From: Clostridiaceae bacterium
Lineage (GTDB): Bacteria; Bacillota; Clostridia; DSM-8532
DNA length: 49,590 nucleotides
Reading direction: 5' to 3'
NCBI GenBank assembly: GCA_012727625.1
Contig: JAAYGP010000274.1
Location: forward strand, 1 to 49,590
Shown here piece by piece: positions 2,554 to 46,180 of this stretch. The notes beneath the pieces were generated by a model, which made no database searches, was not told where the DNA came from, and saw only the letters and a program-made list of their open reading frames with translations. Numbering within the stretch: the first letter of the stretch is position 1; every line of letters begins with the position of its first letter. The translations under genes and the position numbers were made by a program.

Positions 2554-3060
2554 ATGACAAACGAACTTGAAATCCTAAAAAGCGTAGACGAAAAAAACAA
2601 TATAACACAAAGAGAACTTGCCAGACGGACAGGCCTGTCACTTGGGTCTGTCAATGTTTTGCTGAAAAAGCTCATACATAAAGGCCTTTTAAAGATCGAA
2701 CACGTCAATTCAAGGACGATTAGATATATGCTCACTCCCAAGGGTTTAATGGAAAAGGTGAGGCTTACATATCAGTATATTGTTATATCATACAATCGCA
2801 TTTTATCAATTGAGAGAAAAATTGAACAGGTGACGGAGGATTTCAAAGGTTGTCAAATCGTCCTTCTGGGCGAGAAAGATGAGCTTTTTGAAATAATATC
2901 AGGAAAATTGAAATCCATGAATATACATTTCATATTTACAAATGACAACAAGAACTTATTGCAGTATAATGATGAAGAATACATAATTCTTACCTGGAGT
3001 CCGGACCATCTTGATAAGGAATTCAGTAATTACAACAATATTATTAATGTTTTAAGTTAA
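2554..3060 (+). CDS. Winged-helix (MarR/Rrf2-like) transcriptional regulator heading the glycan locus
   Basis: ITQRELARRTGLSLGSVNVLLKKLIHKGLLK is a typical HTH plus recognition helix. The protein is small (168 aa). GTGAGGA lies upstream of the ATG. Confidence 0.7.
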   Translation: MTNELEILKSVDEKNNITQRELARRTGLSLGSVNVLLKKLIHKGLLKIEHVNSRTIRYMLTPKGLMEKVRLTYQYIVISYNRILSIERKIEQVTEDFKGCQIVLLGEKDELFEIISGKLKSMNIHFIFTNDNKNLLQYNDEEYIILTWSPDHLDKEFSNYNNIINVLS

Positions 3061-27900: not shown

Positions 27901-27993
27901 GACAAAAGACAAGTGATGGCTCCGTCTTGTAGCTTATGATGGTGATTTTAACGTCGCTTTATAATAGTATTGAAAAATAGTCGCAAACCGATG

Positions 27994-28061
27994 TGCAACG
28001 AAAACAAAAAAATCGCTTCAGGATGCAACGATAAATAATGCGGTAAAGCAGGCGTTGCATC
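27994..28061. repeat. Cluster 1 of the ATGCAACGATAA motif (one exact copy, one 10/12 copy, one inverted partial forming a 9-bp hairpin)
   Basis: gTGCAACGAaAA at 27993-28004; exact ATGCAACGATAA at 28023-28034; GATGCAACG (28022-28030) pairs with CGTTGCATC (28053-28061). Confidence 0.6.
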
Positions 28062-28128
28062 AGGGAAGTGCTTATGGTAATGCCCTACCGGGTAAAAAAG
28101 TTGTATGTTCAAAAAGGAGAATTAAAAA

Positions 28129-31707: not shown

Positions 31708-31780
31708 CTTATCGTTGCAAATCGGTATGCAACGATAAGGAGAAAATCGTTTTAAAATGCAACGATAAATGCAACGATAA
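31708..31780. repeat. Cluster 2 of the ATGCAACGATAA motif (three exact copies, including a tandem pair and a 12-bp perfect inverted repeat)
   Basis: CTTATCGTTGCA (31708-31719), 8-nt spacer, TGCAACGATAAG (31728-31739). Exact 12-mers at 31727-31738, 31757-31768 and 31769-31780. Confidence 0.65.
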
Positions 31781-31945
31781 AACGAGCGTTGCTAAAGAGA
31801 ATAATTGAAAACTGTAAATAAGACCAAATTTTAATACATGGATCACGAAAAGACAAGTATAAAATTTTAGATTATGCACGAAAAGACACTAATGAAATGC
31901 ATGGAACGGATTGAACACCCGAACATTTCCGGGAAAGACGGGAAA

Positions 31946-44698: not shown

Positions 44699-44998
44699 AT
44701 GAAAAAATACGAATCCATTTTTGTCATAAACCCATTGCTGGAAGATGATAAAATTCAGGAAATAGTCACCAGGGTTAAAAGCTTCATAGAGGAATCAGCC
44801 CAGCTTGAGAAAATCGACGAATGGGGAAAAAGACGTTTAGCTTATGAAGTAAATGATCAAAAAGAAGGGTATTTCACCCTTGTTCATTTTACGGCGGGCT
44901 CTGAATTCCCGGCTGAGCTGGAACGTATTTACAAAATAACTGAAGGCGTCATCAAATACATTATTGTAAGACGCGATGAAAAAGAAGAAAAAGAATAG
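44699..44998 (+). CDS. rpsF: 30S ribosomal protein S6
   Basis: MKKYESIFVINP....DEWGKRRLAYEVNDQKEGYF; AGGAGGTG RBS. Confidence 0.95.
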   Translation: MKKYESIFVINPLLEDDKIQEIVTRVKSFIEESAQLEKIDEWGKRRLAYEVNDQKEGYFTLVHFTAGSEFPAELERIYKITEGVIKYIIVRRDEKEEKE

Positions 44999-45007
44999 GT
45001 TATTTAT

Positions 45008-45206
45008 TCTATCGGATACGCCATAAGACTCTTTCCTTAAGGTGGGAGATTTGGGGCGGACTTAGCGGATATGACTTAATGCAGACATAAATGCCGCAAA
45101 AAATGTCCCGGCGGTCGGGCGGACCGTTTTTTTGCCTGTGGAGCTGCTGTGTTAACGGCACAATGAAGCAGGACTCTCTCGTCTTTCAGGATGGAGAGGA
45201 TGTCAA
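45008..45206 (+). repeat. Copy A of a ~200-nt structured element (rpsF-ssb intergenic leader) containing a short hairpin plus U7 attenuator-like site
   Basis: Aligns along its whole length with 45680-45877. CGGTC (45112-45116) pairs with GACCG (45122-45126), followed by TTTTTTT (45127-45133). Confidence 0.65.
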
Positions 45207-45219
45207 GGAGGTTGAATGC

Positions 45220-45675
45220 ATGAATAAAGTAATTTTAATGGGTCGTTTGACAGCGGATCCAGAGCTCAGGTACACTACGAACAACATCCCGGTATGCCGT
45301 TTCAGTATAGCAGTTGATCGCCAGTATGCAAAGCAGGGCGAGGAAAAACAGACTGATTTTTTTAATATTACAGCATGGAGGGCATCAGGAGAGTTTGCCA
45401 GCCGCTATTTTAAAAAAGGCATGCGCGTGCTGGTGGAGGGCTCAATCAGAAACAACAACTATGAGGACAGCCAGGGCATCAGACATTACACTGTTGAAAT
45501 CTGGGCTGACAGGTTGTATTTTGCGGACGGCAAGAGGGATGATTCGGCAAGTGGCGGATTTGCACAGCAACCTTCATATAAGACGCTGGAATCACAGGGT
45601 CAGCCGGTTATGCAGCCGGATTCAGGAGACGGATTTTTCCCGTTGATTGAAGACGATGATGACCTGCCATTCTGA
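45220..45675 (+). CDS. ssb: Single-stranded DNA-binding protein
   Basis: MNKVILMGRLTADPELRYT....V..FSIAV.R........TDFFNI.AW...AE; acidic tail DDDDLPF; AAGGAGG RBS. Confidence 0.95.
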   Translation: MNKVILMGRLTADPELRYTTNNIPVCRFSIAVDRQYAKQGEEKQTDFFNITAWRASGEFASRYFKKGMRVLVEGSIRNNNYEDSQGIRHYTVEIWADRLYFADGKRDDSASGGFAQQPSYKTLESQGQPVMQPDSGDGFFPLIEDDDDLPF

Positions 45676-45679
45676 ACAA

Positions 45680-45877
45680 TTTATCGGATACGCCGTAAGA
45701 CTCTTTCCTTAAGGTGGGAGATATAAGGCGGACTTAGCGGATATGAGCTTAATGCAGACATAAATGCTGCAAAGAATATCCCGGCGGTCGTGCTGACCGT
45801 TTCTGCCTGCGGAGCTGCTGTGTCAGAAGCGCAATGAAGCAGGAATCTCTTGTCTTTCAGGGCGGAGAGAATGTCAA
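45680..45877 (+). repeat. Copy B of the ~200-nt element, located where rpsR would be expected; no downstream CDS
   Basis: Roughly 85-90% identical to copy A by hand alignment. It is followed ~75 nt later by a strong terminator. Confidence 0.65.
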
Positions 45878-45954
45878 TATTTCCACACCGGTTTTAAAAA
45901 AACCAAAACGAAACGGGACTGGTTTCCCGCTTATTAAGCACTACAACAATATGC

Positions 45955-45989
45955 GCCCTTTTATTTTCAGAATAAAAGGGCTTTTTTTT
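45955..45989 (+). terminator. Strong rho-independent terminator
   Basis: GCCCTTTTAT (45955-45964), loop TTTCAGA, ATAAAAGGGC (45972-45981), T8 (45982-45989). Confidence 0.85.
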
Positions 45990-46180
45990 ATGATGGTTCA
46001 TGGTAAACTTATATTATAATTGTTTCCAGATGGTTGCCTCCCGAAAAGTCGTATAACGATTTTCAGTGTTTTTGAACTGAGGTTGCCTGTATTTTATATT
46101 ATAAAATATTAAGCTCAATCAAGTATTCTCAGGTAAGCCTTTACCTGTTTGTCCGGACAACTCGTTTAGGAGGGGAATCT

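Follow-up and report, generated by a model that had tools for sequence, protein, structure and literature searches.

Two copies of a structured element around ssb in a Clostridiaceae bacterium are very probably protein-less IS200/IS605 derivatives

What is the structured sequence of about 200 nucleotides (nt) that stands on both sides of ssb in a Clostridiaceae bacterium, and has it anything to do with the absence of rpsR, the gene for ribosomal protein S18, downstream of ssb? The DNA in question (the window) is the whole 49,590-nt contig JAAYGP010000274.1 of GenBank assembly GCA_012727625.1. A preliminary description, made from its letters alone, had noticed the duplication and proposed a host small RNA or the leader of a deleted gene, with the second copy in the place of rpsR. 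Our comparisons lead elsewhere: each copy is, with high confidence, a non-autonomous derivative of an IS200/IS605 element that lost its protein genes by internal deletion (of the type called palindrome-associated transposable element, PATE, or miniature inverted-repeat transposable element, MITE). Both halves of the copies are homologous to full elements, the junction between the halves is shared, the boundaries coincide with the termini of the family, both sites are empty in relatives, and the top strand of the element lies on the G-rich + strand. The copies are a known kind of mobile-DNA relic and not a novel regulatory RNA.

The two copies and their left end

The two-copy repeat is far beyond chance. 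Copies A and B, a direct repeat flanking ssb with a spacing of 672 nt, have a mean column identity of 88% in a MAFFT alignment; blastn aligns them at 87.9% identity over 198 nt (E 7e-67), and a repeat search of the window resolves the alignment into three collinear blocks of 85-94% identity each, so the duplication first described is real. Blastn gave no third copy in the 49.6-kb window, and two more assemblies of the same species (L091 and L092) carry the copies. Their boundaries were set by comparison with full-length relatives and empty sites (below), and this corrected the ends first proposed (45008-45206 and 45680-45877), as the TAT shared at their left belongs to the target site. The positions are as follows:

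45013..45206, + strand: copy A, putative miniature IS200/IS605 element, 194 nt (repeat and homology to IS-element ends)
45685..45877, + strand: copy B, putative miniature element, 193 nt (repeat and homology to IS-element ends)
45008..45012, + strand: TCTAT directly 5' of copy A, a pentanucleotide resembling the target or transposon-adjacent motif (TAM), one mismatch to TTTAT
45680..45684, + strand: TTTAT, target/TAM pentanucleotide 5' of copy B
45220..45675, + strand: ssb (151 aa), between copies A and B, in its ancestral position
44699-44998: rpsF, upstream of copy A

What, then, are the two halves of such a copy? A sensitive blastn search of plasmids matched the first ~50 nt of the element at 80-82% to sequence on many enterobacterial plasmids. 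In Providencia this sequence directly adjoins an IS200/IS605 tnpA, with tnpB next, and the first ~50 nt are therefore a transposon left end (LE), with these parts:

45013..45064, + strand: LE of copy A, 52 nt (aligned with L214, L217, L213, and the Providencia and Arsenophonus elements)
45029-45048, + strand: LE hairpin of copy A, the imperfect palindrome CTCTTTCC TTAA GGTGGGAG, after a 16-nt spacer
45685-45736, + strand: LE of copy B
45701-45720, + strand: LE hairpin of copy B

The LEs of three full Clostridia elements (L214, L217 and L213) read TTTAT/C...GCCGTAAGAC-hairpin-GATATAAGGCG, where the slash marks the boundary; they match the window copies, and the changes in the hairpin are compensatory. 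TTTAT/C is the left boundary in copy B and in all of the full elements. After its hairpin copy A reads ATTTGGGGCGGACTTA, which is degenerate relative to the family's ATATAAGGCG. At GGCGGACTTA/GCGGATATGA the 52-nt LE gives way to the terminal ~142 nt of the parent element, and because this junction is identical in A and B, both copies descend from one deletion derivative. All that its 193-194 nt keep of protein genes is a remnant of 32 C-terminal TnpB codons; the element contains neither a transposase nor a TnpB gene, and tblastn found no tnpA or tnpB gene in the window.

The LE core, GCCGTAARAC-hairpin-GATATAAGGCG, is ~80% identical between the Clostridia elements and plasmid IS200/IS605 elements of Providencia, Arsenophonus, E. 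coli, Klebsiella and Xylella, and the TnpBs of those enterobacterial and other plasmid elements (including L089 and L090) are ~52% identical to the Clostridia TnpB; these two values together indicate one IS lineage that has spread across phyla. The exact LE-hairpin pattern had no match in the GTDB representative genomes and none in the JGI metagenomes, and a pattern for the LE/tnpB junction gave chance matches only in the same two collections. Nothing similar to the element was present at 80 ssb loci of other Clostridia, and a phage collection gave short chance matches only.

The right end and the omega-RNA scaffold

By blastn, nt 72-166 of the element match the 3' end of tnpB on an Acetobacter plasmid. 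Relatives were found with a degenerate hairpin pattern, GCCTGYGGAG...AATGAAGCAGGA, which is widespread in bacteria and archaea. The last ~141 nt of one of them, L209 (Clostridiaceae metagenome-assembled genome (MAG) AS05jafATM_70, DUNL01000136), are 92% identical to copy B and 89% identical to copy A; L209 encodes a Y1_Tnp TnpA (PF01797) and a 389-aa TnpB with OrfB_IS605, Cas12f1-like TNB and HTH_OrfB_IS605 domains, and its tnpB stop is the TGA within AATGAAG. Full elements with both ends (L214/L215, L217 and L213) were found through TnpB homologues at 79-80% identity. The right ends (RE) of the window copies and of the full elements finish (A)TGTCAA and then give way to unrelated flanks. About 33 C-terminal TnpB codons are kept in the 3' ~142 nt of each element: in a tblastn search with the L209 TnpB, copy B is still readable as the TnpB C-terminus (GYELNADINAAKNI..., residues 358-389, 87.5%, E 8e-11), and the same C-terminus matches copy A, which is frameshifted, at 45075-45128. 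The parts of this half are as follows:

45065..45206, + strand: copy A tnpB 3' remnant and right end, ending ...GGATGTCAA (omega-RNA scaffold match at 45075-45206)
45110..45133 (including the T-run), + strand: copy A conserved omega-RNA stem, GGCGGTC GGGCG GACCGTT
45135..45172, + strand: copy A kink-turn-like hairpin CCUGUGGAG...CAAUGAAGCAGG, holding the former tnpB TGA stop and an ATG miscalled as the ssb start
45175..45197, + strand: copy A RE subterminal hairpin (compensatory changes in the RE alignment)
45739..45837, + strand: copy B in-frame remnant, the last 32 tnpB codons (GYELNADINAAKNIPAVVLTVSACGAAVSEAQ) and TGA
45748..45877, + strand: copy B scaffold and RE, with a stem at 45783-45801, the kink-turn hairpin at 45806-45843, the RE hairpin at 45846-45868 and the terminus ATGTCAA

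The scaffold of the TnpB guide RNA (omega RNA, or right-end element RNA, reRNA) overlaps the 3' end of tnpB and runs to the RE terminus, homologous to that of L209, L214, L217 and L213. A covariance model (R1) built without the window copies, from those four full elements and one truncated copy (L155), aligns over its full length with the window twice and nowhere else, each time on the + strand: copy B at 45748-45877 (139.7 bits, E ~1e-32) and copy A at 45075-45206 (129.7 bits, E ~3e-30). It also detects related right ends across many phyla. Two truncated relatives were seen besides. L155 (3129-3420) is a derivative of the same IS lineage that keeps the tnpB 3' end and RE only, and L124 (5139-5270, Clostridiales MAG CTOTU40535) keeps only ~95 nt of the omega-RNA/RE part; unrelated genes adjoin both, and in both the surviving part is the RE/omega-RNA end.

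The consensus structure, drawn from a small sample of eight related sequences, has 35 pairs with 95% of cells paired (35-57% in slid controls), and six of these pairs have changes on both sides, as compared with 2.3 in shuffled alignments; none of 500 shuffles reached six. Its five helices are a weak stem in the coding remnant, CGGUC/GACCG, the basal and distal stems of the kink-turn-type hairpin, and the RE hairpin. Minimum-free-energy folds of the single copies were no better than shuffles (z -0.5 and -1.7) and are uninformative. Most of the helices drawn at the outset survive this comparison under other names: CTCTTTCC-TTAA-GGTGGGAG corresponds to the hairpin of the LE and CTCTC/GAGAG to that of the RE, and CGGTC/GACCG is invariant in all eight sequences; CTGCT/AGCAG is replaced, as the alignment supports CCUG/CAGG and UGCUGY/RCGGCA instead. 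The structure is, as had been proposed, meaningful on the + strand, where most differences between the copies lie in loops or leave the pairing intact, and the G-U-keeping differences between them are genuine: over the 3' 130 nt nine substitutions fall at paired positions, and seven of the nine keep the pair in both copies, several through G-U. Such changes fit an omega RNA and top-strand DNA hairpins bound by TnpA equally well.

Does the scaffold belong to a known RNA family? Rfam gave no match in the window at the gathering threshold, in keeping with the preliminary failure to place the element, and likewise none in the full-length relatives. In permissive mode a RAGATH-18 match at 45806-45845, covering CCUGCGGAG...CAAUGAAGCAGGAA, scored 24.6 bits against a gathering score of 44.9. 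RAGATH-18 (RF03064) forms the core of IS607-family TnpB reRNAs (Ren et al. 2024, PMC11061315), so this weak match, though no basis for a classification, directed attention to guide RNAs of transposons. The two share a hairpin closed by CCUG/CAGG with an internal loop GGAG / AUGAAG (kink-turn/E-loop type) in a TnpB guide-RNA scaffold. The element is nevertheless not assigned to RAGATH-18, because its score is below the threshold, the distal part of its hairpin is shorter (15 nt as against ~46 nt), and the related full elements pair with a Y1 (IS200/IS605) transposase and not with an IS607 serine recombinase.

Empty sites, origin and rival explanations

If the copies are insertions, do relatives show the sites without them? 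Five related genomes (L001, L081, L084, L086 and L087; SSB 70-85% identical) have the same ispE-gntR-rpsF-ssb-membrane-protein gene order, with the element absent from both spacers. Their rpsF-ssb spacers are 27-159 nt long and unrelated, and only the ribosome-binding site (RBS) GGAGGTTGAATG is kept; the ssb RBS and start GGAGGTTGAATGYATG are conserved in the relatives. In the closest of these, L087 (SSB 85% identical), both sites are empty and colinear with the window flanks to the base, and at the copy A site its spacer reads TAG-ATTATTTTATTTAT/GGAGG:

rpsF-ssb spacer: L087, empty, ...TTTAT/GGAGGTTGAATG; window, ...TTCTAT(copy A)GGAGGTTGAATG
after ssb: L087, empty, ACAATCGAT/TATTTCC; window, ACAATTTAT(copy B)TATTTCC

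A TTTAT-type pentanucleotide directly precedes each copy, without duplication of the flanks and without terminal inverted repeats. All genes of the window are on the + strand, where the GC skew is positive throughout, and from this the top strand of the element should lie on the lagging-strand template, which is the template that the IS200/IS605 family prefers. Three of the relatives have an extra unit of ~80 nt between the ssb stop and the conserved tail that follows it (L087 601-680, L086 ~1662-1745, L081 ~2957-3045); it starts with TATTTCC, as the tail does, and forms two hairpins, the second then followed by a U-run. The window is without this unit exactly where copy B sits (45676-45684 / 45878), which suggests a deletion between the TATTTCC repeats that probably accompanied or followed the insertion of copy B.

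How could such copies have arisen? Very probably a deletion of ~1.6 kb, from the tnpA stop region to tnpB codon ~357, removed tnpA and all but the last ~33 tnpB codons. The LE and the TnpA-binding hairpin in it thereby came to adjoin the 3' ~142 nt with the omega-RNA scaffold, the RE hairpin and the TCAA cleavage site. From what is described for the family, we suggest that a Y1 TnpA acting in trans then inserted the derivative twice, presumably into the lagging-strand template by single-strand 'peel-and-paste' transposition. As both copies are sense within the rpsF-ssb unit, read-through transcripts would contain omega-RNA scaffolds, and as no promoter is predicted inside the element it is from this read-through that any omega RNA should come. 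Under the family rule, by which the omega RNA of TnpB takes its guide from the 3' flank (PMC10055086, PMC11061315), the predicted guides are GGAGGTTGAATGCATGAATA for copy A and TATTTCCACACCGGTTTTAA for copy B:

45207..45226, + strand: DNA 3' of copy A, the ssb RBS and start codon, candidate guide by position only
first 20 nt of the tail from 45878: candidate guide of copy B

If a cognate TnpB is encoded elsewhere in the genome, these RNAs could direct cleavage of the emptied site (TTTAT plus flank) and so favour retention of the element; TTTAT is both TAM and target of ISGst2 TnpB2 (PMC10055086). Self-cleavage is not expected, because the genomic guide sequences are preceded by GTCAA and not by a TAM, and no guide-like match adjoins TTTAT elsewhere in the window. 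The host probably carries the copies as near-neutral passengers. The copy A hairpin with its U7, noted at the outset and accepted by a terminator scan (45110-45133; seven pairs, four of them G-C; T7 at 45127-45133, with two T in the stem and five in the tail), may stop part of the transcription ahead of ssb; where copy A has T7, the relatives and copy B have TTTCT.

Could the copies instead be a host cis-regulatory RNA (leader, attenuator or riboswitch-like) duplicated around ssb, with copy B the leader of a lost rpsR or a small RNA? Their sense orientation in the operon, the pair-preserving differences, the terminator-like hairpin and U7 of copy A and the lack of an Rfam family at threshold would all suit such an RNA. 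Against it stand the five genomes of identical synteny in which both spacers are free of the element, the homology of its halves to transposon ends around a middle that still reads as C-terminal TnpB codons, and a hypervariable rpsF-ssb spacer in which the RBS alone, and no orthologous element, is conserved; rpsR, moreover, is missing in the element-free relatives too. We regard this explanation, and with it the original proposal of a host small RNA or leader, as extremely improbable. A tandem (segmental) duplication of the ssb region with subsequent deletion, which would have copied one transposon relic along with host DNA, could account for two direct copies so close together and for the lack of a known third one, yet at each of the four ends the homology is bounded precisely by an LE or RE terminus and does not extend into ssb or its RBS, a TTTAT-type pentanucleotide precedes each copy, and both L087 empty sites continue the window flanks to the base. 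It would need two events with four breakpoints coinciding with IS ends, and we consider it very improbable. A dispersed repeat had also been envisaged, as a high-copy sequence with no strand bias or covariation; the copies are of that kind in being transposon-derived, but they show covariation and a bias of strand, and they were not seen at high copy number.

Descent from an IS200/IS605 element by internal deletion would still leave room for a relic that has been put to use. The copy A stem with its lengthened U-run could be a terminator or attenuator that uncouples ssb from rpsF, or the omega RNAs could serve a domesticated, nuclease-dead TnpB regulator (TldR-like). The T7 that makes the scan-accepted site is unique to copy A, the candidate guide of copy A covers the ssb RBS and start codon, and three independent assemblies of the species (the window, L091 and L092) have each kept the element. 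On the other side, neutral slippage could account for the longer U-run; the genomic 'target' of guide A has GTCAA before it in place of a TAM, so that self-binding is not expected; no TnpB or TldR gene is nearby; ssb must still be expressed through the copy A site; and no internal promoter is predicted. Such exaptation appears unlikely, and we would say the same of a relic in use more generally, whether as a partial terminator setting the rpsF:ssb ratio, with ssb as the excisable cargo of a composite LE(A)...RE(B), or as a source of highly expressed guides for a TnpB or TldR elsewhere. Several observations weigh against the transposon derivation itself. Only two copies are known in the collections scanned, so high-copy MITE behaviour is unsupported; copy A is flanked by TCTAT in place of TTTAT, and its LE motif ATATAAGG reads ATTTGGGG; and the scaffold is without a ~41-nt segment of distant elements (Providencia, Acetobacter), a segment that the close Clostridia elements lack too. 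Judged by its flank and LE motif, copy A may be dead, and with its frameshifts it looks more decayed than copy B.

The rpsR gap, the conserved tail and known relatives

Is the missing rpsR related to these insertions? Among 87 Clostridia ssb loci compared, an S18 gene lies within ~0.2 kb after ssb in 76; rpsR does not follow ssb in the window, as first described, nor in L001, L002, L017, L081, L084, L086 and L087. Tblastn found no S18 gene in the 49.6-kb window, and an S18-based scan, which returned 80 loci, all of other lineages, did not find the rpsR of this clade. Because the element-free relatives are also without rpsR and have the same tail and terminator, the loss of rpsR after ssb predates the insertions and is unrelated to them, and copy B did not replace it. 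The tail is as follows:

45878..45990, + strand: host-native conserved tail outside the element, with two small hairpins, an unpaired CACUACAACAA and a strong terminator
45955-45989, + strand: terminator of the tail, 12-bp stem and T8 (terminator scan)

The terminator had been recognised with the same end and a 10-bp stem; the scan confirms the end and lengthens the stem. This ~110-nt tail is kept in the element-free L087 (681-790), L086 (1748-1862), L081 (3046-3160), L084 (3095-3205) and L001. Its hairpins are GGUUUU/AAAACC and GAAACGGGA/UCCCGCUU, with compensatory changes at eight pairs, and it has no Rfam match. Standing where rpsR stands in other Clostridia, it could be a 3' untranslated-region element or a small RNA.

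Two gene calls are affected. In the public call P0001 the ATG of the copy A AATGAAGCAGGA motif (45163-45219 region) is taken as the start, for an SSB of 170 aa, and a spurious 61-aa open reading frame is called from the same ATG in copy B (45834-46019); the conserved ssb start is the ATG at 45220, 8 nt after GGAGG, and gives 151 aa. Both calls are artefacts of the transposon relic. A coding element was considered and rejected, as the copies differ by 1-nt and 2-nt indels, show no codon periodicity and do not keep their open reading frames between them. Elsewhere in the window an unrelated 91-nt direct repeat (27977-28067 and 31711-31801; 73% identity, 3.7 kb apart) is rich in GCAACGA motifs.

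How do the copies compare with known systems? Their nearest known relatives are L209 and L214/L215, L217 and L213: the likeness of 89-92% nt identity (L209) spans the C-terminal codons, the omega-RNA stems, the RE hairpin and ATGTCAA, and L214, L217 and L213 share the LE architecture and TTTAT flank as well. L209-type elements carry a divergent tnpA (Y1) and tnpB (389 aa), and L213 tnpB alone, whereas the window copies have neither gene; the sequence of the LE hairpin differs, with compensation. IS608 of Helicobacter pylori is the model for IS200/IS605 single-strand transposition, with subterminal imperfect palindromes at both ends, an RE that ends TCAA, and strand-specific insertion 3' of a fixed short motif, TTAC. 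The ends of the window copies are similar to these by description; the target here is TTTAT and not TTAC.

PATEs were first described for haloarchaea. Those of the Geobacillus stearothermophilus ISGst families (Meers et al. 2023, PMC10055086) are likewise without protein genes and keep the LE and RE subterminal hairpins; they often still encode an omega RNA, with TnpB needed in trans, and they too insert after a short motif and duplicate no target sequence; ISGst2 likewise has TTTAT as its TAM and target. The likeness holds by description, and the window differs in having two copies only, both in one housekeeping operon and bracketing ssb.

For specialists in these elements the finding is no surprise, and its main value is in annotation: the duplicated 'structured RNA' is explained as mobile-DNA relics, two gene calls are corrected, and the missing rpsR becomes an older, clade-wide rearrangement. 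The locus also shows cleanly, in nature and with empty sites for comparison, a deletion that spared almost exactly the LE, the omega-RNA scaffold and the RE, which agrees with the idea that selection in such elements acts on these RNAs and ends. As the copies lie inside a probably highly expressed housekeeping operon, they offer a setting in which to ask if guide RNAs from host read-through can reach a TnpB in trans.

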